This document shows, piece after piece, positions 49,216-64,000 of a DNA stretch of 64,000 bases. Every line of letters begins with the position of its first letter. The first letter of the stretch is position 1. Origin of the DNA: Coriobacteriales bacterium (GTDB lineage: Bacteria; Actinomycetota; Coriobacteriia; Coriobacteriales; UMGS124); assembly GCA_017515595.1 (NCBI GenBank), contig JAFWFL010000080.1, positions 1,200 to 65,199 on the forward strand. Direction: 5' to 3'. The notes under the pieces are model-generated. The model was not told where the DNA came from, searched no databases, and saw nothing but the letters and a program-made list of their open reading frames with translations. The translations under genes were made by a program, and so were the position numbers.

Positions 49216-50223
49216 ATGATAGCTGTCATTAAACAGAGCGCAACCCAACACCAGCTTGAAAACCTTGTAGCCTGGCTCGAGAGCAAAGGTCTTGAGGTTA
49301 ACGTTTCTGAAGGCAAAGAAGCAACCATTGTTGGTTTGATTGGCGATACCTCAAAAGTTGATATGATGCTCCTTGAGTCAATGGACATCATTGAGCAGGT
49401 AACGCGCGTGACTGACCCGTTCAAAGCTGCTAACCGCAAATTTCACCCCGAAAACTCCGTTATCCAAATCACACCTGAAATCGCAATTGGCGGCGGACAT
49501 TTTCAGGTGATGGCCGGCCCCTGCTCGGTTGAGGGAGAAAATCTCATTTCCATCGCCCGGGCTGTTAAAGCAGCCGGCGCAACTATGCTGAGAGGTGGCG
49601 CGTTTAAGCCCCGTACCAGCCCGTATGCAAACCAAGGCATGGGCAAAGAAGGTCTGGAACTCCTTTGCGCAGCCCGTGCCGAGACGGGCATGCCCATTGT
49701 GACCGAAATTATGGATCCGCGCGACGTAGACCTCTTTATTGATATGGACATTGATGTACTCCAGGTAGGCGCGCGGAATTCTCAGAACTTTAACCTGCTC
49801 AAGGAAGTTGGCCGCGCAGGCAAGCCGGTGCTTCTCAAGCGCGGCATGGCAGGCACCATTGATGAGCTCCTTATGAGCGCCGAGTACATTATGAGCGAAG
49901 GTAACCCCAACGTTATTCTCTGTGAGCGCGGTATCAGGACATACGAGAAGCGCACACGCAACACCTTTGACCTGAACGCGGTACCGGTACTGCATTATTT
50001 AACGCATCTCCCTGTAGTCGCTGATCCAAGCCATGCAACCGGCTACACCCGTTATGTCGCGCCCATGGCCCTTGCCGCAACGGCAGCCGGAGCTGACGGA
50101 CTTGAGATTGAAGTCCATGATAACCCGCAATGTGCCTGGTCAGACGGACCACAAGCACTTTTGCCCACGCAGTTTGCCGAGCTTATGCCCAAGATCAACG
50201 CGATACGGGAGGTAGTCGCATGA
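49216..50223 (+). CDS. aroF: 3-deoxy-7-phosphoheptulonate (DAHP) synthase, type I-beta, with an N-terminal ferredoxin-like regulatory domain
   Basis: 335 aa. The N-terminal ~65-aa small domain is followed by a KDO8PS-like barrel (..GPCSVE.., ..MLRGGAFKPRTSPY.., ..LKRG.., ..DPSHATG..). Confidence 0.9.
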   Translation: MIAVIKQSATQHQLENLVAWLESKGLEVNVSEGKEATIVGLIGDTSKVDMMLLESMDIIEQVTRVTDPFKAANRKFHPENSVIQITPEIAIGGGHFQVMAGPCSVEGENLISIARAVKAAGATMLRGGAFKPRTSPYANQGMGKEGLELLCAARAETGMPIVTEIMDPRDVDLFIDMDIDVLQVGARNSQNFNLLKEVGRAGKPVLLKRGMAGTIDELLMSAEYIMSEGNPNVILCERGIRTYEKRTRNTFDLNAVPVLHYLTHLPVVADPSHATGYTRYVAPMALAATAAGADGLEIEVHDNPQCAWSDGPQALLPTQFAELMPKINAIREVVA

Positions 50224-51332
50224 CACTGACCCCGCCTCTCACTGAGTATGCAACCGTGCGTGTTGAGGCGTCCGGATCATATGATATTGTCATTGGGAAA
50301 AACCTTTTAGCCGGTTGTGCAAAGCGCATTTGCGATGCGGTTCCCGGCAATGATAAAAAGGTTCTCGTGATTTCTGACACCAATGTGTTTGCATGCTACG
50401 GTAACACCGTTCTTACGAGTCTTGCATCGTTTGGTTTTGAAGCTCATTCGTTTGTTTTTGAAGCAGGCGAGCACAGCAAAAACCTCGAGACCTATGCCCA
50501 GGCTCTGAGTGCCGCAGCTACAAGCCGGCTCACACGGTCAAGCATTATTGTTGCCTTGGGTGGAGGGGTATGCGGCGACCTTGCCGGCTTTGTTGCAGCT
50601 ACCTATATGCGCGGCTGTGCGTTTATTCAGATACCTACCTCGCTTTTGGCAATGGTAGATTCAAGCGTTGGTGGCAAAACCGCCGTTGACCTGCCCGAGG
50701 GTAAGAATCTTGTAGGTGCCTTCTGGCAGCCTAAGCTTGTGATTTGTGACGTTACCTGCTTGCACACGCTCCCCGAGTATTACATGACTGATGGAATGGG
50801 AGAAGTTCTCAAATATGCCGTTATGCAGGATGCACACCTGTTTGACCTGCTTAACAATCCCGCGAGCGTAAAGCGCGAAGAGCTCATACGCTGCTGCATT
50901 GAGATCAAACGTGACATTGTTGAGGCAGATGAGCGCGAGCATGGCCAGCGGAAGCTCCTTAATTTGGGACACACCATGGGCCATGCGATTGAGCGTATGA
51001 GCAGCTATAGCATATCTCATGGCCGGGCGGTTGCCGCAGGTATGTGCATCATGGCCCGCGCATGCGCTGAAGCCGGAATATGCCCTGCTCAAGACGCCTT
51101 GCGTATTGTAGAGCTGGTTAAATCCTACGGTCTGCCCACGCAGACCGAGTTCGAACTCAATGACCTTATGAATGCTGTCACACTCGACAAAAAACGGAGC
51201 GGTACCTGCGTTGACGCAATCACTATTGAGGGCATTGGCTCTGCAGCCATTAAACGGATAACGCTCGATGAATTTGCAACATTTATTGCACCCGGCCTTA
51301 CTAAAACACCGGGTGATGTCATATGCCGGTAA
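50220..51332 (+). CDS. aroB: 3-dehydroquinate synthase
   Basis: The start ATG 50220 overlaps the aroF stop (ATGA). Motifs GGGVCGDLAGFVAATYMRG, VDSSVGGKTAVD and NLGHTMGHAIE. The track ORF from 50130 is an out-of-context extension. Confidence 0.92.
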   Translation: MTLTPPLTEYATVRVEASGSYDIVIGKNLLAGCAKRICDAVPGNDKKVLVISDTNVFACYGNTVLTSLASFGFEAHSFVFEAGEHSKNLETYAQALSAAATSRLTRSSIIVALGGGVCGDLAGFVAATYMRGCAFIQIPTSLLAMVDSSVGGKTAVDLPEGKNLVGAFWQPKLVICDVTCLHTLPEYYMTDGMGEVLKYAVMQDAHLFDLLNNPASVKREELIRCCIEIKRDIVEADEREHGQRKLLNLGHTMGHAIERMSSYSISHGRAVAAGMCIMARACAEAGICPAQDALRIVELVKSYGLPTQTEFELNDLMNAVTLDKKRSGTCVDAITIEGIGSAAIKRITLDEFATFIAPGLTKTPGDVICR

Positions 51333-52741
51333 ATAATTCGCTGCCACAGGATGCTGTCATAACACCCAGCATGCTAAAGGGTACTCTGCCTGCAATTGCT
51401 TCAAAATCTGCCGCACACCGCATGCTCATCGCCGCAGCCTTGAGCGACCGTGCCACAAATATTACCTGCTCAAGCACTTCAGATGATATCGAGGCAACAA
51501 AAGCGTGTCTTAAAGCTCTGGGTGCCCGCATTACGAATTATGAAGGCGGGTTCACCGTTTCTCCCCTTGACCGGTACGCCTTGAGGCAAGAACCCATGCG
51601 AACATTGCTTTGCGGAGAAAGCGGCTCTACCCTGCGCTTTATGGTTCCTGTTGCCGCAGCTCTTGGCGCAAATGCCCGGTTTAGCGGAGAAGGCCGCTTG
51701 CCTGCGCGTCCCATGTCTCCGTTGCGTGAAGAGCTTATTGCGCACGGATGCGAAGTTTCGCCCCAGGGCATGTGGCCGCTCACGGTAGCAGGGTCTTTGC
51801 AAAGCGGTGTATTTGTGTTGCCGGGCAATGTTTCTTCGCAATTTGTCACCGGTCTTTTGCTCGCGCTGCCCGTTACCGGAGCAGGCGGCGCTGTCCTTAT
51901 TACAGGCACCGTTGAGTCAAAGCCGTATATTGATCTCACCTGTGAAGTGCTCCGCTCGTTTGGCGCTCATGTCACCTGTACCTGGCAGCAGCCCAAAGCT
52001 GAGTTTTGTAAAGACCACCCTGAGTTTGCCGAGAAACTCCTCGGCATTGATGAATGCGAGGTTGTCTCGGCCTTAATGCTTGCACCTGGCACAGTATATA
52101 CTTCTCCCGGAAGCATCAATGTTGAAGGAGACTGGTCTAACAGCGCATTTTGGCTCGCAGCCGGAGCGCTTGGCGAACAGGTGTGCGTAAAGGGCTTGTG
52201 CAGCTCTTCTACACAGGGCGATAAGGTCGTTGTTGATATTCTTCAGCGGTTTGGCGCATCAGTACAGTGTTTGAGTACAGATAGTATGTTTGCTTCTTAC
52301 TGCGCCGGCAATGCAGGTTTACCGCTTAAGGGTATAGAAATTGATGTTCACGATGTGCCTGATCTTGTACCTGTTCTCGCCGTTGTAGCCGCAACCGCAC
52401 AGGGCACTACGGTCTTTAAAAACGCGGCCCGGTTACGCCTCAAAGAGTCTGACCGTATTGCAACTACAACCGAGCTATTGGAGCAACTCGGCGCACGCGT
52501 TGAATCCGGCCCAGATACCCTCAAAGTTTGGGGTACCGGCACTCCCGCTCCGGAGCCGTGCTTTTGCTCCTGTACAGTTGATTCGCACGGGGACCACCGC
52601 CTTGCGATGGCAGCGGCTGTTGCTGCATGCAGGGCAAACGGGCCTGTACATATAAAGCAGGCTCAGGTCGCAGCCAAGTCATATCCAACGTTTTATGATG
52701 ATTACCGGGCGCTGGGCGGGAACGTTATCCTGAACCCGTAG
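51323..52741 (+). CDS. aroA: 3-phosphoshikimate 1-carboxyvinyltransferase (EPSP synthase), atypical active-site motifs
   Basis: 472 aa. EPSPS blocks SSQFVTGLLLALP, SKPYIDLT, LKESDRI and GDHRLAMAAAV. The N-terminal motifs read IASKSAAHR and CGESGSTLRF. It overlaps the aroB end by 10 nt. Confidence 0.9.
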   Translation: MPVNNSLPQDAVITPSMLKGTLPAIASKSAAHRMLIAAALSDRATNITCSSTSDDIEATKACLKALGARITNYEGGFTVSPLDRYALRQEPMRTLLCGESGSTLRFMVPVAAALGANARFSGEGRLPARPMSPLREELIAHGCEVSPQGMWPLTVAGSLQSGVFVLPGNVSSQFVTGLLLALPVTGAGGAVLITGTVESKPYIDLTCEVLRSFGAHVTCTWQQPKAEFCKDHPEFAEKLLGIDECEVVSALMLAPGTVYTSPGSINVEGDWSNSAFWLAAGALGEQVCVKGLCSSSTQGDKVVVDILQRFGASVQCLSTDSMFASYCAGNAGLPLKGIEIDVHDVPDLVPVLAVVAATAQGTTVFKNAARLRLKESDRIATTTELLEQLGARVESGPDTLKVWGTGTPAPEPCFCSCTVDSHGDHRLAMAAAVAACRANGPVHIKQAQVAAKSYPTFYDDYRALGGNVILNP

Positions 52742-52795
52742 CACACTCGCATCAACGCTTTTCAACATATTACTCTTAACAGAAATGAGAAAACT

Positions 52796-53983
52796 ATGAC
52801 ACAGTCACCTTGCCAGGGAACAAACGCCACACCCAATACCGGCGAACTGAGCAGCCTAAGAGTACGTATTGACGAGATCAACAGCCAAATTCTCTCGCTT
52901 TTTGAAGAACGTATGCAGGTAGCCGGCAGCATTGCCGAGGTCAAACGGGCAGAGGGGCGTGTTGTGACTGACCCCGCACGCGAGCGCCAGATTCTTCAGA
53001 ATATTCGCAGCATGGCGCAAAAGGATATGGAAAGCTATGCTACAGTATTGTTCTCGCTGCTCATGGAGCTTTCGAGCGCATACCAGGGACAGCTTTTGCA
53101 TCCAACGTCTCCGCTTAAGGAGCGTATTGATACCGCTCTTTCTGAGACCGAGCTTTTGTTCCCTCCGGCTGCAAGCGTTGCCTGCCAGGGCGTGGAAGGC
53201 GCATATTCCCAGCTCGCGTGCGAGAAATTCTTTAAGCATCCGAGTATCTCGTTCTTCAAAAACTTTGAGGGCGTCTTTAGCGCCGTTGATGCCGGATTCT
53301 GCGAATTTGGCGTCCTACCGCTCGAGAATTCCTCGGCAGGCTCGGTATCGCGCGTTTATGACCTGATGATGAAATATGATTTCCATGTGGTGCGTACCTG
53401 TAGGCTTAAGGTTGACCACAACCTCCTTGCAAAACCGGGCACATCCATAGAAGATATCAAAGAGGTGTTCTCGCACGAGCAGGCTCTGACCCAGTGTGCC
53501 GGATATCTCGAATCTCTCGGCAATATCAAAGTGACAACTGTCTCCAACACCGCAGAAGCCGCGCGTACGGTTGCCCAAAGCGATCGCCGTGACATCGCGG
53601 CGCTCAGCAGCCGTGCCTGCGCCGAGCTGTATGGTCTTGCCACACTTGCGCGCTCGGTCAACGATACTGCGAACAATTACACGCGCTTTGCCTGCATCTC
53701 TAAGGAACTCAAGATCTACCCGGGTGCCGATAGAACATCGCTTATGATGGTTCTCCCTCACGAGCCGGGTTCGCTCTATAAGATTCTCGCCCGCTTTTAC
53801 GCGCTCGATCTCAACCTCACCAAACTCGAAAGCCGCCCCATTCCCAACCGCGACTTTGAGTTCATGTTCTACTTTGATTTTGATACTCCGGTTTACGCAC
53901 CCGAGTTCAGCACCCTTATCTGCGAACTCGGCGACCTTTGTGAAGAGTTTGACTATCTGGGCAGCTACTCAGAAATGGCGTAA
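52796..53983 (+). CDS. pheA: Bifunctional chorismate mutase / prephenate dehydratase (P-protein)
   Basis: 395 aa. N-terminal CM helix bundle (LRVRIDEINSQILSLFEERMQVAGSIAEVK). PDT domain (..LPLENSSAGSV.., ..TRF..). C-terminal ACT domain (ESRP). Confidence 0.92.
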   Translation: MTQSPCQGTNATPNTGELSSLRVRIDEINSQILSLFEERMQVAGSIAEVKRAEGRVVTDPARERQILQNIRSMAQKDMESYATVLFSLLMELSSAYQGQLLHPTSPLKERIDTALSETELLFPPAASVACQGVEGAYSQLACEKFFKHPSISFFKNFEGVFSAVDAGFCEFGVLPLENSSAGSVSRVYDLMMKYDFHVVRTCRLKVDHNLLAKPGTSIEDIKEVFSHEQALTQCAGYLESLGNIKVTTVSNTAEAARTVAQSDRRDIAALSSRACAELYGLATLARSVNDTANNYTRFACISKELKIYPGADRTSLMMVLPHEPGSLYKILARFYALDLNLTKLESRPIPNRDFEFMFYFDFDTPVYAPEFSTLICELGDLCEEFDYLGSYSEMA

Positions 53984-54015
53984 CCTGACAAAAGGTCCGT
54001 CCTTTTGTCAGGTTA
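53981..54015. repeat. Palindromic repeat copy 4 (TAA-CCTGACAAAAGG-TCCGT-CCTTTTGTCAGG-TTA)
   Basis: 15-bp arms. The left arm includes the pheA TAA stop codon (53981-53983). Confidence 0.85.
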
Positions 54016-54023
54016 CGCAAAGT

Positions 54024-54054
54024 GCCCCGGAGGGTTTCTCCGGGGCGCTTTTTG
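54024..54054 (+). terminator. Rho-independent terminator after pheA
   Basis: GCCCCGGAG (54024-54032) pairs with CTCCGGGGC (54038-54046), followed by GCTTTTTGTT. Confidence 0.8.
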
Positions 54055-54084
54055 TTACTTTGGTTTTAACGTGCTAGGCGCAAA

Positions 54085-55677
54085 TTATTTACCAATGTAC
54101 TTGGCGGCTTCCATGGCGATGATGCGGCCGGAGTTGTTGGCCCAAGATGCCTGAGAACCGGGGCAAATCATAACGTCGTAGCTGTCGCCGTAGAGGCAGC
54201 CGGCGTCAGAACCACCGGCATAGAGGCCGGGGATAACCTGATGGGCTTCGTTCTCAACTTCGCAGTTAACGTTGATCATGATGCCACCGCAGGTGGTGTA
54301 ATAACCGTCACCGGTCTGGCCAATGTAGAACGGAGGCTCCATGGTGCGGAGGAACTCAGCGGGCTTATGGAAGTCCTCGTCAAAACCGGCAGCGCAGTAA
54401 CCATTGTAGGTGTCAAGGGTCTCCTGGAGCTTAGCAGCGTCGAGACCCCAAGCAGCAGCCATTTCCTCAACGGTGTCGCACTTAACAAGGTTGCCCTCTT
54501 CTACGAGGTAATCGATGTCCTCACGGACGCCCTCCATGGGGGTGCCGGGTGATACGAAGGAGAAGACCATGCCGTACGGGCCTTCCTGCTCCCAAGTTAC
54601 AAGGTCATTCTCGGAGAAGATGATGAAGGTCTTGTCCTGGTTGCGCTGTGCAAGGCCAACGCCTGCGAAGTCGGTGATCCATACTGACTCGTCGATCCAG
54701 CGCTCAGCGTTGCCGTTGATCCAAAGGGTAGGCTGTACAGAAGCACAGTAGTCCATATGAGTCCAGATAGCGCCATTGATGCACGGACCGCACCACATAA
54801 CGGTGCCAAGGCCCTCAGCCATGTAAGCGCCGGCATCGCGGGCCATCTTGATGCCGTCAGCGGTCATGCCGGGAACACCCTGCGGGAGGATGAGCTCGTT
54901 GCGGGTCTCGGATACTGCATAGAGGAAGTCCTTGTTCTGAGGATAGCCACCGGTGCAAACAGCAACTGCAGGAGCATTTACCTGTACAAAGGTGCCGTCA
55001 GCGCGCTCGGCGATTACACCCTTAACCACGCCGTCCTCAACGATGATCTTCTTAACGGGGGTCTCAAGCTCAATCTGAACGCCGAGGTTAGCGGCAGCGG
55101 CGCGCATGCTGTCCTGGAAGGTTGCGCCAGGTCCCATGTTCAGATCGCGCTCGTATACGTGCCAAACCTTGTCGCCGTTACCAATGGCGATGGCGCCCTG
55201 GAAACCAACACCGAGGTCCTCAAGCCACTGTACGGTCTCAGCGGTCTGATTGAAGAAGCGGTTGTAAAGAGCACGGTTGGGGATGTAGTGATGATACTTC
55301 ATCGACTGCTCAACCTTGTCAAAAACGGTGATGTCACCAGTGCCGGCAGCCTCGTTGTACTTTGTGCCAAGAGCAAAAAGACCCTCGGTACCAATGAATG
55401 AACCGCCGGTTACCTCGCGCTTCTCCAACACGATGGGCTCAAGACCAAGCTGCTTGGCCTGGCAGGCGCAAGCCATGCCGGTGCCGCCTGCACCGATGAT
55501 AGCGATGTCGGCCTCGAGGAACTCGGTGGGTTCGCCAATGGGGTCAAGATCCCAAACGCTGCTGGTCTCAGAAATAACCTTTGCCTCAGCGGGCTTAACG
55601 GTGCTTGCTACTGCTGCTGCACCGGCAACTGCTGCAGCGCTTGCGACAAAACTACGACGGCTGATGTTCTCTGACAT
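54085..55677 (-). CDS. Tat-exported FAD-dependent oxidoreductase (fumarate-reductase flavoprotein-like), paralog of 26989..28545
   Basis: 530 aa. Tat leader MSENISRRSFVASAAAVAGAAAVAS. Rossmann motif DIAIIGAGGTGMACAC. C-terminal GLYAGGSDAGCLYG. SD AAGGAGG. Confidence 0.87.
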   Translation of the reverse strand: MSENISRRSFVASAAAVAGAAAVASTVKPAEAKVISETSSVWDLDPIGEPTEFLEADIAIIGAGGTGMACACQAKQLGLEPIVLEKREVTGGSFIGTEGLFALGTKYNEAAGTGDITVFDKVEQSMKYHHYIPNRALYNRFFNQTAETVQWLEDLGVGFQGAIAIGNGDKVWHVYERDLNMGPGATFQDSMRAAAANLGVQIELETPVKKIIVEDGVVKGVIAERADGTFVQVNAPAVAVCTGGYPQNKDFLYAVSETRNELILPQGVPGMTADGIKMARDAGAYMAEGLGTVMWCGPCINGAIWTHMDYCASVQPTLWINGNAERWIDESVWITDFAGVGLAQRNQDKTFIIFSENDLVTWEQEGPYGMVFSFVSPGTPMEGVREDIDYLVEEGNLVKCDTVEEMAAAWGLDAAKLQETLDTYNGYCAAGFDEDFHKPAEFLRTMEPPFYIGQTGDGYYTTCGGIMINVNCEVENEAHQVIPGLYAGGSDAGCLYGDSYDVMICPGSQASWANNSGRIIAMEAAKYIGK

Positions 55678-55706
55678 GAATTCCTCCTTGTATTAGGATT
55701 GAATAA

Positions 55707-55728
55707 CCAACAATACTATTTTTGTTGG
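55707..55728. promoter_or_regulatory. Short inverted repeat CCAACAA-N8-TTGTTGG in the LysR/flavoprotein divergent region (candidate LysR site)
   Basis: 7-bp arms at 55707-55713 and 55722-55728. A second CCAACAAT word occurs near 55873. The evidence is weak. Confidence 0.2.
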
Positions 55729-55958
55729 ATTTGATACCGCTCTTGCGGATGTCGAGAGTATTGTTGCATGCTCCAAAACAAAAAGATAGGCCTTTTTCTG
55801 TAACTGAAAATTGGTGCCTGTGAATCGTGGTTTCAACCACTCGGGGTGAGTTTTGACCGCACGGGTTACCGTGCCAACAATAGCACTTGAACATCTGTTG
55901 TTTAAAGCGTAAAATAAAAAGTTCGAGTGTGCAAAGATTCATTAACTTGGGAGACGTC

Positions 55959-56873
55959 ATGAATACTGAACAGCTCCGTTATTTTGAACTGGCATATCAG
56001 GAACGGAATTTCTCGGCTGCGGCACGCTTGGTACCCTGTACCCCGCAAGGGCTCGCAAAAGCAATTCATGCGCTCGAGAAGGAGCTTAATGTCACACTCT
56101 TTGAAAACGACGAGCTTACCGGCTTGCCGCTGCCAACACCCTATGCCCATGAGCTGTTTGAATATGCTGCGGTAAGCGACAGTAACCTGAGGCTGCTCTA
56201 TGAATCATTTGACCGGTTGCGCGGAGAAGAACATAAGCGCATCAGGCTGGGCTGTTCTCTGGGAATCATTGGCACTTTTGGTTCAAGCTTTATTACGGAT
56301 TTTGAGCGGCTCCATCCTCATATTGAAGTAGCACATTGGGAAATGAATGATTACCTTTGTGACCAGGGACTTATAGACGGAACCTATGACCTGGCTCTCG
56401 AGATTGGTCCGTTTGTCTCGGGCGTCAAAGCGGTGGAGCTCTACCGGTGCCCTATGTATTTTTGGGTTAACAAAGATGACCCTCTCGCAACAAAGAAGAG
56501 TCTTACCATTCAGGACCTAGACGGCAAAGATATTGCGATTCCGGGAGAAGGCTTTAAGTGCTACGACCGCCTGAGAGAAGAAGCGCTCAAAGCAAACATT
56601 AATCTGGGCCGGATATTAGAAATGAGCGAGATTTTCCAGCTCTACGAGTTCGCCATTGAGAACCAGGGCCTTGGCTTCTCGGTACGCCACCTTACCCAGC
56701 TCAAAACATTTACCCGTGCCCAAGAGGTTGTAGCCATCCCCTTTAACGGACCTGCCTGGTACTTTGGCATCCAGCGCCTCTCCACCCACGCCCTCGGCAC
56801 CGCCGAGGCAACCTTCTGGGACTGGTGCATAACCTACTCCCACCGCCTCCCCAGCGACCCTCTGGGGAAATAA
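55959..56873 (+). CDS. LysR-family transcriptional regulator
   Basis: The start is set at ATG 55959 (MNTEQLRYFELAYQERNFSAAARLVPCTPQGLAKAIHALEKELNVTLFE, a LysR wHTH). It is divergent from the flavoprotein gene. The track ORF from 55887 adds 24 unsupported codons. Confidence 0.88.
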   Translation: MNTEQLRYFELAYQERNFSAAARLVPCTPQGLAKAIHALEKELNVTLFENDELTGLPLPTPYAHELFEYAAVSDSNLRLLYESFDRLRGEEHKRIRLGCSLGIIGTFGSSFITDFERLHPHIEVAHWEMNDYLCDQGLIDGTYDLALEIGPFVSGVKAVELYRCPMYFWVNKDDPLATKKSLTIQDLDGKDIAIPGEGFKCYDRLREEALKANINLGRILEMSEIFQLYEFAIENQGLGFSVRHLTQLKTFTRAQEVVAIPFNGPAWYFGIQRLSTHALGTAEATFWDWCITYSHRLPSDPLGK

Positions 56874-57067
56874 AAGCAGTCCCTAGCAGAGTAAACCGCC
56901 AAGTTTGTGTCTGATAATTACGGCAGGGTGTCGGTTGCGTTAATAACACATTACAATACGTGTGCGTAAAAAGCCTGTAACACGTGCATTCTATGATCAT
57001 TGGATGACGGACTTTGTTTGTTTAAGCCAAGCCTTGGATGGCTTGTGAATGATCGAGAGGGGGGCGC

Positions 57068-58408
57068 ATGAGCAGGCTGTCTGATGCTCTGTTGGCAGGC
57101 ACCTCAAAACCTGTGCAAATACCTGCGCTTTTGGTACTAGAAGACGGAACGGCGTTCTATGGCACTGCGTGCGGCGCAGAGGGCGAAGCGTTTGGAGAAA
57201 TTTGCTTTAACACATCGCTTGAGGGCTATTTTGAGGTCATTACCGACCCCTCATATGCCGGACAAATTGTTACCATGACCTATCCTCAAATTGGCAACTA
57301 CGGTGTTAACCTGGATGATGCCCAGGCAGAGCACCCGGCGCTGCGCGGCCTTGTGGTACGCGATATGTGCTTTTCGCCCTCTAACTGGCGCAGCGAACTC
57401 ACACTCCCGCAATATCTCAAACACGAGGGTGTTGTTGCAATTGAGGGTATAGATACCCGGGCTCTCGTGCGCCATGTGCGCGACCATGGCGCAATGAAAG
57501 CAGCTATTTCTACCATTGATACCAATGTGGAGAACCTCCTTGCAAAGGTTCGCGCAAGCGAATCGATTCTTGGCGTGAATCTCGCAAAAACCGTGTCGTG
57601 CCAAAGCGCATATATGTTTACCACCGGCAATCTCCCGGCAAGCAAGGCGTTTGCCCTCGCTGACCCTGCGCCAAAGAAGTATAAGGTCATTGCCTATGAC
57701 TGCGGAGCAAAGCGCTCGATCCTCGAAGGATTGGTGCGCGTAGGCTGCGAGGTCGAGGTTGTGCCGTGGAATACTCCCGCTCAGGAGGTTCTCGTATCTT
57801 CTCCTGACGGCGTGTTCCTCTCAAACGGCCCCGGCGACCCTGATGCCGTTATAGAGACATACCGCCAGGCAGAGCTGCTTTTGGGCAATGTCCCTGTCTT
57901 TGGTATTTGTCTGGGACACCAAATGATGTGCAAAGCCGCAGGTGCGCGCATTGAGAAGCTGAGATTTGGCCATCACGGCGGCAACCATCCCGTCATGAAC
58001 CTCCTTTCGCATCAAACCGAGATCACCGCACAAAACCACGGGTTTAACCTCTGCTATCCAAGCCTGGGCCCCCTGTGTGCCGAGCTCTCTGGCGGCGTGT
58101 CTCACCATGCAGATGACCTGCGTTTTTGGGTAGAACGCGGCATTGCTCCCGTGGTCGAAAACAAGCGCTACGGCAAAATACAGCTTACCCACGTTAACTT
58201 AAACGACGGCACTGCCGAGGGAATGGCCTTTTTGGATATCCCCGCGTTTTCTGTCCAGTACCACCCCGAGGCAAACCCCGGGCCAACAGATTCTCACTAT
58301 TTGTTCACCGCATTCACACGCCTTATGGACCAATGCGACAACTATCTCGATATCAATATTTCACAGGACAGGCTCGCGGGCTGGGATTTTAAACGGCAGG
58401 GTGCATAG
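57068..58408 (+). CDS. carA: Carbamoyl-phosphate synthase small (glutaminase) subunit
   Basis: 446 aa. Catalytic GICLGHQ and ..VQYHPEA.. motifs. It is longer than typical CarA, with an insertion and a C-terminal tail. Confidence 0.93.
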   Translation: MSRLSDALLAGTSKPVQIPALLVLEDGTAFYGTACGAEGEAFGEICFNTSLEGYFEVITDPSYAGQIVTMTYPQIGNYGVNLDDAQAEHPALRGLVVRDMCFSPSNWRSELTLPQYLKHEGVVAIEGIDTRALVRHVRDHGAMKAAISTIDTNVENLLAKVRASESILGVNLAKTVSCQSAYMFTTGNLPASKAFALADPAPKKYKVIAYDCGAKRSILEGLVRVGCEVEVVPWNTPAQEVLVSSPDGVFLSNGPGDPDAVIETYRQAELLLGNVPVFGICLGHQMMCKAAGARIEKLRFGHHGGNHPVMNLLSHQTEITAQNHGFNLCYPSLGPLCAELSGGVSHHADDLRFWVERGIAPVVENKRYGKIQLTHVNLNDGTAEGMAFLDIPAFSVQYHPEANPGPTDSHYLFTAFTRLMDQCDNYLDINISQDRLAGWDFKRQGA

Positions 58409-58441
58409 CACTAAAGTCCGCATACGAAAGGATAAGACACC

Positions 58442-61400
58442 ATGCCAAAGCGCACAGATATAAAGACAATCCTCGTCATAGGCTCAGGACCTATTGTCAT
58501 TGGACAGGCATGCGAATTTGACTACTCGGGAGCGCAGGCCTGCAAGGTGCTGCGCGAAGAAGGTTACCGCGTTGTTCTGGTCAACAGTAACCCCGCAACC
58601 ATTATGACCGATCCTCATATGGCTGACCGCACCTATGTTGAGCCCATTACCGCTGAGTTTGTCGAGAAAGTTATCGCACGTGAGCGCCCTTGTGCTTTGC
58701 TCCCCACGCTCGGCGGGCAAACCGCTCTCAATACTGCCGTTGAACTGGCCGAGAATGGCGTGCTTGACCGCTATCATGTAGAGATGATTGGTTGCGACCT
58801 CAAGGCAATCCAGCGCGGAGAAGATCGCAAACTCTTTAACGAATGTATGGAGGATCTTGGCATTGAGACAGCCCGCAGCGGTTATGCTTACTCGGTTGCC
58901 GACGCATTATCAATCGTTGAAGATATTGGTTACCCGGTAGTATTGCGTCCCTCGTATACCTTAGGAGGCGCCGGCGGCGGCATCGCCCACAATCAGGAAG
59001 AGCTCGAGCTCATTGTTTCTCAGGGCATTGAGCTTTCTCCCGCAAAGGAAGTCCTTGTAGAAGAGTCAATTGAGGGATGGAAAGAGTTTGAGATGGAGGT
59101 TGTACGCGATAAAGCCGGTAACGGCATTATTGTGTGCTCAATCGAAAACCTCGACCCCATGGGTGTCCACACCGGTGACTCAATAACCGTAGCTCCCGCA
59201 CAAACACTCTCTGATGTTGAATACCAGCGCATGCGCGCAGCGTCGCTCGCGGTTCTCGAGAAGATTGGTGTTGAGACCGGCGGCTCAAACGTGCAGTTCG
59301 CGGTGAACCCCAATGACGGACGCATGGTCATTATCGAGATGAACCCCCGCGTTTCGCGTTCCTCGGCGCTCGCCTCAAAGGCAACGGGCTTCCCCATTGC
59401 CAAGGTCGCGGCCCGTCTCGCCGTGGGCTATACGCTGCCTGAGATTCTCAATGACATTACCAAAGCTACGCCGGCCTGTTTTGAGCCAAGTATTGACTAC
59501 TGCGTGGTCAAAGTACCCCGCTTTGCATTCGAGAAATTTAAGGATTCCGACGACACACTTACAACCCGTATGAAGGCGGTTGGCGAGGTCATGGCCATTG
59601 GGCGCACGTTTGAAGAAGCCCTTGGTAAGGCGCTCCGTTCGCTCGAAAACGGACGATCAGGCCTTGGCGTTGACGGTCATGCGCCGGCTGCAGATTCCAA
59701 AGAGGGATACCGCGATCTTCTTGCCCGTCCTACCTGCGACCGCATTGTCTATGTGGGTTGCGCGCTGCGCCATGGCTGGACTCCACAGGAGATTCACGAG
59801 GTCACCGGTATAGACCGCTTCTTCCTTGACAAGATGGCAGACATTGTCGCAGTTCAGGAAGCCCTGCGCGGCATAGATGTTGAACAAATTGATGCAGACG
59901 CATTTTGGGTTGCGAAGCGGCATGGCCTCTCGGATGCTCAAATTGCCTTCCTCACCGGGTCAACCGAGCGTACGGTACGCGCGCGTCGCAAGGCTCTGGG
60001 CGTCATACCTGCCTTTAAGACGGTAGACACCTGCGCAGCCGAGTTCGCAAGCTCAACGGCGTACCACTATAAGACCTATGACACAGCCGAGTCTGAGATT
60101 GCTGATGCCCCTGATGAGCAGCAAAAGCCCAAAGCCCTCATCTTGGGCGCCGGCCCCAACCGCATTGGCCAGGGGATTGAGTTTGACTATTGCTGCGTGC
60201 ACGCAAGCTACGCGCTCGCCGAGGCCGGATTCCAAACCATTATGGTTAACTGTAACCCCGAGACGGTCTCCACAGACTACGATACATCGCATAAGCTTTA
60301 CTTTGAGCCGTTAACCTTTGAAGACGTGATGGATATTGTCGAAGCCGAAAAACCCTACGGTGTTGTGGCGACTCTTGGCGGGCAAACACCGCTCAAGCTT
60401 GCGAAAGCGCTCGAAAACGAGGGTGTTGTCCTTATGGGTACTGATGCCGACGCCATAGATCTGGCCGAGGACCGCGACAGTTTTGCAGCCCTTCTCGACA
60501 ACTTGGGAATTATGTACCCGCCCTCAGGCGATGCCTCTACGCTCGAAGAAGCTGTGCATGTGGCTGCGACCATTGGTTACCCGCTCCTGGTGCGTCCAAG
60601 CTATGTACTCGGCGGGCGCGGTATGGCCATTGTGTATGACGCGACCCAGCTCAAACGCTATATGGCAGAAGCAGCCAAGGTCTCACCCGACCACCCGGTT
60701 TATCTCGACAGATTCCTGGAATCAGCGATAGAGGTTGACCTGGATTGCGTTTGCGACGGCAAAGACGTATACATTGGCGGCGTGCTCGAACACATAGAAG
60801 AAGCAGGCATTCACTCGGGTGATTCGGCATGCTGCATACCGCCGTTCACGCTCTCTGATTCTTTGGTGCACCAAATGTGCGACATCGCCCATCGCCTCGC
60901 TTTGAGCATTGGCGTCCAGGGCCTCATGAACGTCCAGTTTGCGATTAGGGATCAGACGGTCTATGTCATTGAGGCTAACCCACGCGCGAGCCGCACGGTT
61001 CCCTTTGTCTCCAAAGCCACAGGAGTGCCGCTTGCCAAAGTCGCAGCCCGTGTTATGGCAGGCGAGAAACTCGCGCATATGAACCTTCCGCAAAATGCGC
61101 TTGATCTTGAGTATTTTGCCGTGAAGGAAGCCGTAATGCCATTTGGCCGGTTCCCCGGGTCAGATGTGGTACTCGGCCCCGAGATGAAGTCAACCGGCGA
61201 GGTCATGGGCATTGCGCCAACGTTCCCGGCAGCTTATGCAAAGACCCAGCTCGCAATTTCTTATGGTCTGCCCCTCAGCGGCAATGTATTCATAAGTGTG
61301 GCAGACCGAGACAAGCGTTCGATCGTGTCGATTGCCCGCGACTTTGTGCACCTTGGATTCACCCTGGTCAGCACAAGCGGAACCGCAAAAACGCTCAAAG

Positions 61401-61675
61401 CCTGCGGTGTGCCGTGCAAGGTGATTCGCAAGATCAACGAGGGACATCCCAACATTGTGGACATGATCTCCCAAGGTGAGATTCAGCTCATAGTCAACAC
61501 CCCCTTTGGCCACGGCGCCCGTGCCGACGGCTATGAACTGCGTCTCGCAGCCGTGCGCTACGGAGTAACCTACGCCACCACTATAGCAGCAGCCCAAGCC
61601 TTTGCCGCCGCCATGGAAGTAGCCCGCCAAGACGGTCTTGACGTGGTAGCCCTCCAGGACCTGAAGCAGTGGTAG
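58442..61675 (+). CDS. carB: Carbamoyl-phosphate synthase large subunit
   Basis: 1077 aa. Duplicated ATP-grasp halves (two IGQ..EFDYSG/EFDYCC starts). Canonical CarB throughout, including an MGS-like C-terminal domain. Confidence 0.97.
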
Positions 61676-61691
61676 ACTTTTAGACAGACCA

Positions 61692-61744
61692 AAAGAGGGC
61701 TGTGTGTTGTTTCTAAATTTCACAACGCACAGCCCTCTTTTATG
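61692..61744. terminator. Bidirectional rho-independent terminator between carB and the convergent large-protein gene
   Basis: 19-bp stem AAAGAGGGCTGTGTGTTGT / ACAACGCACAGCCCTCTTT (one G-U pair), flanked by an A-run on the left and TTTTAT on the right. Confidence 0.85.
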
Positions 61745-61769: not shown

Positions 61770-62495
61770 CTATGCTCCGCTCTTACCGCAGACTGAGCAG
61801 GGATCTCCCTTGTGGGGTTCTGCGTATTCTTTACCGCACAGCTTACAGGCATAGTAATGAAAGAAAGTATCATATTTGCCTGTTAAAACATAATCGTGAC
61901 CAATATCACCCTCTGTCCCGTAGGGAGGTTTAAAGTTCTCGTGATACTCTTCACCGCATCTTGAGCAGAAATAACATTCGTAGCCGTAGTCTACGCAGGT
62001 TGGCGATGCGGTGTATTGCCACTGGTAATTGTGTCCTAATGCAGTACCGGGGTGAACCTCTTTATAGTCAAGTCCACATATTGAGCATTCCCAGTTAGTG
62101 GTTTCATCAAACGTACAGGTGGGAGGCGAACCGCCCATCTCATGCCAGTCATGACCGGTAGCGGGAACAGGATCTGCATACCCGCTCTTACATATTGAAC
62201 ATTCATAGTAGGTATAACCGTCTGTCTCACATGTTGGAGCCACATAGGCCACCGCAATGTAATTATGGCTGGTAGCAGGGATAGGAACGGTAATAACATC
62301 CTTACATTTTGTGCATTCGTAAACGGTATAACCGTCTGTGTCGCATGTAGGAGCTACCGTAACGGTTGCCATATATGCATGCTCGGTAGCGGGAAGTATA
62401 TCTTTGTAAGTCTCACTGCATCCGGTGCAGGTGTACAAAATGTAGCCCTCTGTAGTGCAGGTTGCTGCAACTGTTTCTGAAGCAACCCAGTTATG
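61770..62495 (-). repeat. Coding tandem repeats (about 38 aa x 5-6): H-x-[WY]-x7-9-C-x3-5-[GY]-x3-4-C-x2-C
   Basis: Units start at the His of HNWVASETVAATCTTEGYILYTCTGC, HAYMATVTVAPTCDTDGYTVYECTKC, HNYIAVAYVAPTCETDGYTYYECSIC, HDWHEMGGSPPTCTFDETTNWECSIC, HNYQWQYTASPTCVDYGYECYFCSRC and the degenerate last unit HDY..CKLC..CSVC. His spacing is 38, 38, 38, 40 and 45 aa. Confidence 0.85.
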
Positions 62496-64000
62496 AGTGG
62501 TGTGCTCGGCAGGTGTTGGCGTAGGTGTAGGAGTAGAAGACGTTGCGGGAGTTGTTGATGCTTCTGTTTTTGGCACAAAACCATGAGCGGTCATCTCATG
62601 CTGTGACCTTCCGGACAGAGGCTTTACTACAACGTTGCCTTTATATGATCCTTCTTTACCGTTCTGCATGACACCGTCTACATATATTACGCCTTTAACA
62701 ACAGAACCGGGTTCCAGCTCCAAACCGTATAAATAGCTGTCAGCCGTAACAATCCAGGTAGATTCTCCCTTGAGCGACACCGTAAGTCCATGCTGAATGT
62801 CAAAGGTTTTATCTGGGCAATAATCAGCAAAACCTTCCTGTTCACCTGCTTCTATCCATTGGTCAACCCCGTATTGGTTCATCGCACCATTAAACTTGGT
62901 TGAATCGAGCACCAAAGAGAAATCGCGATGATAATCCTCATGGGCAATATCGCCTGTTACCTCCATATCTTTCATGACTACAGAAATACCGTCGTAGGTT
63001 TCAGCTTTCTCTCCCATAATCATTGCTGCCGTATTACCGGCAATGATAGTCTGGATAAGGTAACCCGTTCCTTTTTCATCAGCAATAAGCTCGCAGTTGT
63101 CAAGCGTTATATCTGCATTGGTTGACGAGATAACTATAACGCTCCCTTTTGTATGATCAAGATAGGCCTGCGTTTGTTCAGGATACTTAACGCCTTTATC
63201 AAGTGAGAGATCAGTCTTTAAAACGGTATCATGTGCAACTATGCTTGCAGATAAAAGTGCAAGCTCCTGAGTGCCGTATATACTCTCAAGATATTCTTTT
63301 GTTTCCGGAGTGAGATTTCTGTTAGAGCAGATAACCATGAGGGCATTGCGTCCACCCTTAACAACACTGTCAAGCTGCTTGTCTAATCTCTTACTTTTAT
63401 CTCCGACAGAGAGAACCCCGGCAAGGTCTGCGTTGTTTTCTCCGTCTTCAATATTACCTAGAACTAGTTCGCCAAAGGTATCAGAGATGATACCGATCTC
63501 GGCGCCTTGAACCGCACTGCCGTATATTAAAAGATTACCAAGAAAATCAACGCATGCACCGCAGCCACCGTCAGTAGCAATCAGTTTTGAGCCATAGGTA
63601 TAAACGCTTTGCTCCTTGGCATTCTCAGAGGCAGGCAGTCCTTCATTGATGCAGAGAGCTCCCAGATCTTGCGCAGCAAGCGTAGAATTGAGGTAATAGC
63701 TTTGACTGTTCTCTTGGTCAAGTACCGTAAAGGTTCTTCCGCCTATGATGAGTTCAGGAAAAACATCTAATGCTGGAGTTGTTTTTAACGAGGTTTCTGT
63801 ACAAACATAAGAATTGCGAACAATAAGGCTTGCACGATTCAAAACCTGAACGGCAGGGGTATCTACGTAGATAAGCTCAATTTCATCGAGAACTTGGCTT
63901 CCCAAGGCAACCTGCAAAAATGCCTCATTCGCCTTGGCTGAATCAAATGTACCCCCATAACCATAGGCGTTACCTGTCGCAACTTGAGCTGTTGTACTCG
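61770..64000 (-). CDS. Large protein, 5'-truncated by the window edge, with a Thr/Pro linker and C-terminal His/Cys3 tandem repeats
   Basis: The reading frame stays open from 63917 to the window end (..STTAQVATGNAYGYGGTFDSAKANEAF-LQVALG..), so the TTG start in the track is an artefact. TSSTPTPTPTP linker. About 38-aa repeats fill the last 241 aa. Confidence 0.75.
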   Translation of the reverse strand, partial: STTAQVATGNAYGYGGTFDSAKANEAFLQVALGSQVLDEIELIYVDTPAVQVLNRASLIVRNSYVCTETSLKTTPALDVFPELIIGGRTFTVLDQENSQSYYLNSTLAAQDLGALCINEGLPASENAKEQSVYTYGSKLIATDGGCGACVDFLGNLLIYGSAVQGAEIGIISDTFGELVLGNIEDGENNADLAGVLSVGDKSKRLDKQLDSVVKGGRNALMVICSNRNLTPETKEYLESIYGTQELALLSASIVAHDTVLKTDLSLDKGVKYPEQTQAYLDHTKGSVIVISSTNADITLDNCELIADEKGTGYLIQTIIAGNTAAMIMGEKAETYDGISVVMKDMEVTGDIAHEDYHRDFSLVLDSTKFNGAMNQYGVDQWIEAGEQEGFADYCPDKTFDIQHGLTVSLKGESTWIVTADSYLYGLELEPGSVVKGVIYVDGVMQNGKEGSYKGNVVVKPLSGRSQHEMTAHGFVPKTEASTTPATSSTPTPTPTPAEHTTHNWVASETVAATCTTEGYILYTCTGCSETYKDILPATEHAYMATVTVAPTCDTDGYTVYECTKCKDVITVPIPATSHNYIAVAYVAPTCETDGYTYYECSICKSGYADPVPATGHDWHEMGGSPPTCTFDETTNWECSICGLDYKEVHPGTALGHNYQWQYTASPTCVDYGYECYFCSRCGEEYHENFKPPYGTEGDIGHDYVLTGKYDTFFHYYACKLCGKEYAEPHKGDPCSVCGKSGA

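Follow-up and report, generated by a model that had tools for sequence, protein, structure and literature searches.

Near one end of the analysed stretch of DNA (the window, 64,000 nt) lies the larger part of a minus-strand gene, whose protein frame occupies positions 61773-63998 (742 codons, from the open reading frame and its translation), whose stop codon is at 61770-61772, and whose N-terminus falls beyond the window end. The same locus is found on three metagenome contigs, i.e., L001, L015 and L016. The contigs stop 88-268 bp upstream of the start codon, and the NCBI contig has a length of 65,582 bp. Intact 781-aa copies, identical to the window protein across 742/742 aa, are present on L015 and L016, from which the full gene was obtained, while in the L001 copy a single G-to-T change has given rise to a stop codon. 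The 39 residues absent from the window are MGMKLQRIRAMGMCLIMIAVIMAASFVTTRVVSAAEAAS, and residue numbers given here for the fragment are converted to full-length numbering by adding 39. All three contigs supply a signal peptide with a cleavage-type end, MGMKLQRIRAMGMCLIMIAVIMAASFVTTRVVSA followed by AEAAS, in which MGMKLQRIRAMGMCLIMIAVIMAASFVTTRVVSA displays a Sec-type charged start, a hydrophobic core and a small-residue end. On visual inspection and from its hydropathy (maximum 15-aa Kyte-Doolittle value of 2.75), this sequence is typical of Sec signal peptides, through which the protein would be exported, and full-length homologues also carry a signal peptide. The first-pass annotation of this DNA, which covered the window only, had supposed the protein to be extracellular, a supposition borne out by the 781-aa gene and its Sec-type N-terminus. 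The CarA and CarB proteins encoded in the window are identical to MBR2835690.1 and MBR2835691.1 (NCBI; Coriobacteriales bacterium MAG). The hairpin that follows the gene (Table 1), an inverted repeat with 20-nt arms that are 95% complementary, 11 nt between them and an A-run and a T-run on its flanks, is a likely two-way terminator.

Table 1. Features of the repeat-protein locus (positions in the window) and proposed metal sites (residues in fragment numbering).
Feature	Position or residues	Strand	Remarks
Partial CDS, putative secreted protein	61770..64000	-	742/781 codons plus stop; first 39 codons (signal peptide) outside the window
N-terminal conserved domain	62613..63971	-	fragment aa 10-462; AlphaFold2 pLDDT mostly 85-97
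Linker rich in Pro/Thr/Ser	62505..62612	-	fragment aa 463-498; includes TSSTPTPTPTP (fragment aa 486-496)
Unit 1	62382..62504	-	aa 499-539; extra His499, then H502, C514, C524, C527
Unit 2	62268..62381	-	aa 540-577; H540, C552, C562, C565
Unit 3	62154..62267	-	aa 578-615; H578, C590, C600, C603
Unit 4, GGSPP variant	62034..62153	-	aa 616-655; H616, C628, C638, C641
Unit 5	61899..62033	-	aa 656-700; H656, C668, C678, C681; extra C675; longer linker
C-terminal cap	61773..61898	-	aa 701-742; H701, H714, C718, C721, H729, C734, C737
Proposed site 1	H499, H502, C524, C527	-	putative; extra His at array start
Proposed site 2	C514, H540, C562, C565	-	putative; inter-unit covariation and topology
Proposed site 3	C552, H578, C600, C603	-	putative
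Proposed site 4	C590, H616, C638, C641	-	putative
Proposed site 5	C628, H656, C678, C681	-	putative
Proposed site 6	C668, H701, C718, C721	-	putative; C668 of unit 5 plus cap residues
Proposed site 7, cap	H714, H729, C734, C737	-	putative; from family conservation only
Hairpin	61691..61741	no strand	between convergent carB (ends 61675) and the repeat-protein gene

The full-length protein is composed, in order, of the Sec signal peptide, a β-helix-like domain of ~450 aa, a Pro/Thr linker, the repeats and a cap. Seventeen relatives at 38-50% identity were identified, as well as a distant one, P0018, at 25%, and their architecture consists of a signal peptide, a conserved domain of ~450-480 aa, a variable Pro/Thr/Glu linker, 0-7 repeat units and a conserved cap, in which the pattern H..CxxCG..Y.E.H...C.(.)CG[YWHK].G is kept. 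The linker differs in both sequence and length between homologues and is predicted by AlphaFold2 at pLDDT <50 (aa 463-499). Some members of the family, i.e., P0012 and P0015-P0018, are devoid of any repeat unit. A scan of GTDB genomes returned no relative when a single protein served as query and eight loci when the family alignment was used. The N-terminal domain is predicted to adopt a parallel β-helix-like fold: a Foldseek search of the PDB with the whole model returned weak β-helix matches, namely 8opz and 4ru4 (tailspike depolymerases), 1dab (pertactin) and 9beu (GH110B), none of them at E<=1e-3. This domain found no Pfam match in 18 family members, no NCBIfam match and no match among PDB sequences. 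Its genomic context, described below, provides a lead, which points to a head domain that is probably a β-helix acting on glycans.

The repeat region (61773-62504, minus strand) comprises five regular units of 38-45 aa, each with one His and three Cys, followed by the cap. The pattern H-x-[WY]-x7-9-C-x3-5-[GYT]-x3-4-C-x2-C returns exactly five matches in the protein, all of which are C-terminal to TSSTPTPTPTP, with the unit His at fragment aa 502 (its codon beginning at 62495), 540, 578, 616 and 656 and the following His at 701. The resulting His-to-His spacings of 38, 38, 38, 40 and 45 aa are those reported in the first-pass annotation, which had recognized these tandem His/Cys3 units. The tail contains 20 Cys and 12 His per 257 aa, as against seven of each in the preceding 485 aa. 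When this Cys/His-rich tail was shuffled 20,000 times, 59 shuffles yielded one match and none yielded two or more, and chance is excluded as the origin of the five matches observed. Identity of the units to unit 1 ranges from 24 to 47%, and Tandem Repeats Finder detected no repeat in the DNA that encodes them, which together indicate that the units are old, diverged copies. The GGSPP variant represented by unit 4 recurs in homologues P0002-P0007. The last 42 aa contain two CxxC pairs, CKLC and CSVC (CxxC-x12-CxxC), in keeping with the degenerate last unit described earlier, and the protein terminates in GKSGA, 5 aa past the final Cys. Also as described earlier, no anchor follows the array: no LPXTG/sortase motif, SLH domain, dockerin or hydrophobic segment was found after it.

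AlphaFold2 predicted units 1-3 at a pLDDT of 93.8, with strands of seven, seven and six residues per unit, and the model of the whole protein contains three strands per unit at a pLDDT of 75-85 as well as strands in the cap at aa 703-709, 713-718 and 724-728. Each unit is thus confidently predicted to be a three-stranded antiparallel (up-and-down) meander. A Foldseek search with the three-unit model found no similar structure in the PDB (best E 0.17, TM<=0.26). In this model the His directly precedes strand 1, while the second Cys (C2) ends strand 2 and the third (C3) occupies the turn that leads into strand 3, placing these three residues at one end of the sheet. The first Cys (C1) is positioned at the far side of the sheet, in the loop joining strands 1 and 2, where it adjoins the linker toward the His of the next unit. 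With C1 opposite His, C2 and C3, a single unit as modelled cannot close an HCCC site, and C1 of unit i-1 must join His, C2 and C3 of unit i.

Covariation between neighbouring units was assessed in a set of 5,739 natural units, in which only 24-29 proteins supply informative pairs. Variable C2-C3 spacing was allowed, as many apparent losses of the third Cys are C-x1-5-C variants that confounded a first co-loss count. A His inside the C2..C3 loop of unit i was found in 44% of cases where C1 of unit i-1 was lost, compared to 2.6% otherwise, corresponding to an odds ratio of ~29 (p=8e-93, a p-value which, like the others given here, overstates independence, the units within a protein being related by duplication), while the same-unit control gave 1.1. 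Furthermore, where unit i-1 had lost C1, the knuckle of unit i was more often altered (odds ratio 8.3, p=6.5e-28), and loss of C1 showed no significant association with alteration of the knuckle of its own unit (odds ratio 0.55). A total of 119 pairs of C1 loss and altered knuckle were observed against 25.7+-4.4 with unit order shuffled within arrays, a number reached in 0/2,000 such shuffles, and the reverse neighbour and the same unit gave 18 and 17 pairs, respectively. An extra His is also commoner in the first units of arrays (odds ratio 3.2, p=3e-16). Assignment of His to a Cys triad from apparent array ends, performed with a regular expression, did not discriminate. Replacement of Cys by His is indicative of a metal ligand and not of a disulfide, and the combination of strand topology and covariation suggests that the metal site probably sits between units, formed by C1 of unit i-1 and the His and CxxC of unit i.

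Among PDB sequences, the top match of an 87-unit profile was 9qa6_A, the IgA protease of Thomasclavelia ramosa (E=4.5e-8), which ranked second with a 51-unit profile (E=5.2e-5). The matched stretches, i.e., residues 852-881, 944-978 and 1100-1135, are individually weak (i-E 0.002-0.4). This protease (IgAse, UniProt Q9AES2, PDB 9qa6) was described in two papers (PMC12237041, PMC12415215), and its matched regions, termed ZBD1 and ZBD2 in PMC12237041 and CTD2 and CTD4 in PMC12415215, are experimentally unresolved AI models. In these models ZBD1 and ZBD2 consist of three-stranded up-and-down sheets with Cys/His sites at their interfaces and no disulfides (PMC12237041), while SAXS data for CTD2 fit a fully extended rod, for which its authors proposed "an uncharacterized periscope domain fold" (PMC12415215). 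The domains were presented in 2025 as what may be a new fold, metal-binding or 'periscope', for which the authors found no homologues (PMC12237041, PMC12415215). The sequence matches indicate that the repeat described here is homologous to these domains.

The likeness extends beyond sequence. The IgAse subdomains are 34-40 aa in length and form three-stranded up-and-down antiparallel sheets, as predicted here, they possess tetrahedral Cys/His sites at subdomain interfaces, one of which is Cys3His as proposed here, and they belong to an extended, rod-shaped protein part exported by a gut bacterium. The placement of Cys/His sites at sheet interfaces is, for the present repeat, supported by strand topology and directional covariation. 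The two systems differ in that IgAse contains two to three degenerate subdomains per block with mostly His2Cys2 sites, whereas the window protein has five regular Cys3His units, and in that other domains separate the IgAse blocks, after which come an LPXTG-type anchor and a transmembrane segment, whereas the window protein ends in a dedicated cap at its extreme C-terminus and has no anchor. The heads are also different, being an M64 peptidase in IgAse and a β-helix-like domain in the window protein. In both proteins the metal sites are predicted, the IgAse domains being defined by AI models and SAXS.

To estimate how widespread the repeat is, 1.84 billion representative proteins (50% identity level) were searched with a profile of 44 positions built from 51 units. 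The profile matched 55,827 proteins at E<=1e-3, of which 30,144 reached E<=1e-10 and 8,286 reached E<=1e-30, with up to 90 units in a single protein and a longest protein of 7,583 aa. Among the 4,956 aligned units of the best 150 of the 55,827 proteins, the period is 38-41 aa and the five main conserved positions hold, in order, His in 84%, Cys in 94%, Gly in 96%, Cys in 100% and Cys in 95% of units. In the same best 150 of 55,827, units account for a median of 68% of the sequence and 128/145 Met-starting proteins have a signal-peptide-like N-terminus. The repeat is accompanied by dockerin, Flg_new, CAP, choline-binding repeats, SLH and GDSL lipase domains, and two virome proteins that were structural matches to the model carry SLH and LRR alongside it. 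A homologue search with a three-unit alignment returned fragments of <=224 aa, in which dockerin, Flg_new and Big_2 domains occurred sporadically and assorted zinc-finger Pfam models matched weakly.

Repeat proteins derive from Ruminococcus, Oscillospiraceae and Clostridiales, and are named at NCBI as hypothetical or after a partner domain. Some are labelled "RNA polymerase subunit RPC12/RpoP" in IMG, evidently a misannotation derived from a zinc-ribbon COG. No family of Pfam-A or NCBIfam covers the repeat in the window protein, in 18 family members or in nine strong repeat-bearing proteins, and the literature searched for zinc-ribbon or CxxC repeats on surface proteins of Firmicutes gave solely the IgA-protease papers. 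The first-pass annotation had regarded such strings of units as functionally undescribed, which is nearly right and has to be amended for IgAse, as a 2025 description of its domains exists, based solely on prediction and SAXS. The repeat is therefore not categorically new, its homologous IgAse domains being few, degenerate and only predicted, while the link between these domains and the large repeat family appears to be unreported in the literature searched.

That link would make thousands of "hypothetical" giant proteins annotatable. Zinc sites built on Cys are usually a feature of intracellular proteins, and Cys-based metal sites are here the apparent main structural principle of a huge exported class in anaerobic gut bacteria. 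The canonical repeat would offer structural biologists a regular, high-confidence target, and zinc-dependence of rod integrity would become directly testable. The window gene itself is of modest yield, representing one more member with an unannotated β-helix head.

From the predicted fold and the covariation taken together, it is fairly likely that the tail of the window protein is a metal-stapled rigid stalk, in which end-to-end sheets are clipped by metal at the unit junctions. The array would belong to a widespread extracellular repeat and contain one cap unit after five canonical ones, and each ~38-aa unit would form a single three-stranded antiparallel sheet with a scant hydrophobic core. 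One metal ion, most likely Zn(II), would be held at every unit junction by C1 of unit i-1 and the His and C-x2-C turn of unit i. At the first junction an extra His, provided by EHTTH in the window protein, would substitute for the absent upstream Cys, and an H-x(1,2)-H array start is found in 13/13 repeat-bearing family members. The cap would end the array with a His2Cys2 site, for a total of seven sites (Table 1), with C675 of unit 5 left unassigned. The metal staples would lock the sheets end to end, generating a stiff rod of ~200 Å (scaled from the published ~110 Å per three subdomains) that carries, or extends from, a secreted β-helix-like domain probably active on glycans. We infer which metal is bound, that the rod is rigid, that it serves as a stalk or spacer and that the head domain is active.

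The structural role of the array as a stiff rod is the best-supported reading, while its role as a spacer is the weakest step of the stalk model on account of the missing anchor at either end and the existence of family members without repeats. A stalk is expected to be anchored at one end, whereas the signal peptide of the window protein looks cleavable. It is conceivable, although unlikely, that the array mainly binds a cell-wall polymer, a host glycan or a protein, thereby tethering or targeting the β-helix, and that the metal merely shapes it. Such a function is compatible with the staple structure and differs in purpose only. In its favour, a protein without a covalent anchor must be retained or targeted by something, and an aromatic residue is conserved on each strand (W/Y following the His, Y preceding C2 and Y following the CG). 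The repeat co-occurs with Flg_new, dockerin, choline-binding, SLH and LRR, i.e., with adhesin-type and anchoring modules, and the cap is conserved and specific to the family, being absent from the best 150 of the 55,827 matches, which are unrelated proteins. It is disfavoured by the finding that the corresponding ZBDs of IgAse are dispensable for catalysis (PMC12237041), and by a copy number of 0 to 90, which suits a spacer better than a specific site. A targeting or binding role, of the array or of the family-specific cap, is retained as a live alternative.

An extension of the stalk reading, which we deem rather improbable, is that arrays are zinc-gated mechanical elements, the rod being rigid and protease-resistant only in the presence of extracellular zinc. 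If so, host zinc withholding (calprotectin, inflammation) would render these very abundant exported proteins of gut Clostridia and Coriobacteriia floppy or lead to their degradation, which would alter how far attached enzymes or adhesins reach or how active they are. Giant proteins with 50-90 sites could furthermore form a sizeable extracellular zinc sink, and a family of >55,000 members (at 50% identity) would connect the nutritional immunity of the host with the way commensal surfaces are built.

The first-pass annotation had interpreted each unit as a putative zinc-knuckle bead that could bind one Zn through HCCC. Taken in full, this interpretation makes every 38-aa unit a self-contained knuckle or ribbon and the array a flexible string of beads. 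It is consistent with the presence of one His and three Cys per period, with the weak similarity of the profile to rubredoxin and zinc-ribbon knuckles, and with the zinc-ribbon COG (RPC12/RpoP) by which IMG tags some repeat proteins. It is now very unlikely, as C1 is separated from the His, C2 and C3 by a 7-residue strand (pLDDT 94 model) and covaries strongly with the knuckle of the next unit and not with its own, while the extra His at the array start is needed only if the first site has no upstream Cys. In addition, Pfam zinc-ribbon models gave no match (E>0.1). What endures of the earlier proposal is a conserved ligand set and about one metal site per period; the independent beads, and the provision of all four ligands by one unit, do not, since topology and covariation place C1 with the His/CxxC of the next unit.

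A disulfide-based array, in which the Cys residues are joined in disulfides, with or without a remaining free thiol, and metal plays no part, as in EGF-like extracellular modules, is more improbable still. Cys-rich extracellular repeats are mostly disulfide-bonded and AlphaFold does not model metals, both of which would allow for such an arrangement. Opposed to it are the odd number of Cys (three per unit) together with an almost invariant His, the offsetting of Cys loss by gain of His, which cannot form a disulfide, the strictly anaerobic gut lifestyle of the hosts (Coriobacteriales, Oscillospiraceae, Ruminococcus), and the IgA protease, in which 24 Cys are present yet no disulfides are seen (PMC12237041). 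Least credible of all is that the sites are occupied by iron or a different redox-active metal and conduct electrons outside the cell, or that the arrays are a metal store or buffer, given that rubredoxins, although matched by the profile at E ~1e-3, are matched over the 12-16-aa CxxCG knuckle only, that sites spaced one per ~37 Å (110 Å per three subdomains; PMC12237041) are too distant for electron hopping, and that fully coordinated His-Cys3 is typical of structural zinc, even though up to 90 sites per giant protein would amount to much metal.

Several known systems were compared with the repeat. In a zinc ribbon, two knuckles of one domain bind its metal. The classical zinc ribbons (RpoP/RPC12 COG1996 and the TFIIS C-terminal domain) were rejected as a match for units 1-5, since these contain one CxxC, a lone Cys and a His each, with a site that is completed, in the model, by the neighbouring unit, and Pfam zinc-ribbon models remained at E>0.1; moreover, the repeat proteins are extracellular and stand apart from the nucleic-acid machinery. 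The motif T-x-x-G-x-x-x-Y-x-C-x-x-C-G resembles the TGEKPYxCxxCGK linker and knuckle of C2H2 zinc fingers, and partial profile matches to 2i13 and 1mey cover 16 residues, i.e., the hairpin and knuckle only. A C2H2 finger was likewise discarded, as the predicted fold is all-β, with no helix and no H-x3-5-H pair. Comparison of the tail with PDB sequences returned rubredoxin knuckles only. Disulfide-rich modules do not correspond to the repeat in view of the odd Cys count and the Cys-to-His compensation.

Periscope proteins (SHIRT of Sgo_0707) and the G5-E regions of SasG and Aap are elongated rods made of small tandem β modules (PMC8201768, PMC9704523), and share with the present array a small hydrophobic core and a variable copy number (0-7 in the window-protein family). 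Aap and SasG are zinc-responsive, and zinc bridges two Aap protomers via His/Asp/Glu (PMC8201768, PMC9704523), whereas the Cys/His sites of the window protein are predicted to be fully coordinated within one chain. The window protein does not qualify as a periscope protein as described by Whelan et al. 2021, for which near-identical DNA repeats and a wall anchor would be expected: its units are diverged, with no near-identical repeat among them, and an anchor motif is lacking.

The neighbours of head-domain homologues are sugar-uptake and catabolic genes. The tandem paralogues P0003 and P0004 (48-50% identity), which come from the same sample as L015, are located between an SBP_bac_5 gene and genes for an Opp-type permease and ATPase, in a locus that adjoins DHDPS (NanA-like), ROK and NanE genes. 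The homologue at L010 is located after an Opp-type ABC transporter, and further homologues adjoin aldolase II, FGGY kinase and GH39 genes.

The N-terminal domain of the secreted protein, in which motifs such as GGRNA, AYIDHTKGSV, GTGYLIQT and HEDYQRD are near-invariant, constitutes a separate, unannotated family, with no match found among Pfam, NCBIfam or PDB sequences. Two copies of this domain are present in the family member P0015, while P0018 represents a distant member. The family also includes two tandem paralogues, P0003 (745 residues) and P0004 (725 residues), both of which carry the repeats and whose genes are inserted between a gene for an SBP_bac_5 protein and genes for an Opp-type permease and ATPase, the latter being followed by DHDPS (NanA-like), ROK and NanE genes. 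This gene layout resembles that of a sialic-acid utilisation cluster, and the predicted beta-helix domain may free a sugar that is taken up by the transporter.

At the other end of the protein, the C-terminal cap, with the ending given in the table, is kept across the family, but among the 150 top-scoring repeat-bearing proteins of other families none has such an ending; its role could be structural, or it could act as a signal for recognition. The fourth cysteine of unit 5 (Cys675) is not kept in homologues and lies outside all of the proposed metal sites (sites 1-7). The locations of these and other features are listed in the table.

Features of the gene, its homologues and its flanking regions
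Feature	Location	Strand	Detail
N-terminal conserved domain	window 62613-63971	minus	~450 aa
Glu232 codon	window 63303-63305	minus	GAA; corresponds to L001:899, where TAA is found
Cys675, fourth Cys of unit 5	window 61974-61976	minus	GYECYFC
C-terminal cap	window 61773-61898	minus	ends C-x(1,2)-C-G-[YWHK]-x-G-x-x-G
Inverted repeat	window 61691-61741		20-nt arms, 95% complementary, 11-nt loop; between convergent carB and the gene
Contig ends upstream of the gene	L015 10580-10847; L001 1-88; L016 6992-7079		
Tandem paralogues P0003 and P0004	L002 10001-14458; L006 7721-12178		one contig, ENA ERZ28018703 k141_338972

The repeat is also encountered in proteins labelled in IMG as 'DNA-directed RNA polymerase subunit RPC12/RpoP', i.e., P0152 and P0164 (both IMG) and P0247, which are exported, repeat-rich proteins of about 170 to 1,460 residues, P0152 additionally containing a dockerin. 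This label is a systematic misannotation that is due to the CxxC knuckles. Furthermore, the AlphaFold2 model of units 1-3 matched two gut virome proteins in BFVD, A0A8S5QLF9 and A0A8S5SUG5 (E=2e-9 and E=2e-5), from contigs assigned to Podoviridae sp. and Siphoviridae sp.; their annotations name an SLH domain and a leucine-rich repeat protein, respectively. Judging from these model-based matches, the repeat is present on phage or prophage-associated contigs as well, unless the contigs represent contaminating bacterial DNA.

The G+C content of the gene (61770-64000) is 43-48%, as compared to 50-57% in the adjacent LysR, carA and carB genes (50000-61700), while its nearest relatives outside the Coriobacteriales are found in Clostridia, i.e., Parasporobacterium, Oscillospiraceae and Eubacterium; taken together, these observations suggest that the gene was acquired horizontally. 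It is uninterrupted in two further assemblies (L015 and L016), whereas in L001, a near-identical contig from a different sample (ENA ERZ27256851), the stop codon in place of Glu232 breaks it into two open reading frames of 270 and 417 residues, which reflects either natural inactivation of this allele or a mistake introduced during sequencing or assembly.

All three of these metagenome contigs terminate shortly upstream of the gene, at 88-268 bp from its start codon, a consistent assembly break that could stem from repeated or variable sequence or be an artefact of the assembler; a perfect palindrome of approximately 30 nt is located at this end of L015. Downstream of the gene, the inverted repeat, which was overlooked by a simple terminator scan because of its loop length, is bordered by AAAA and TTTT, and the hairpin is likely to act as a bidirectional terminator.
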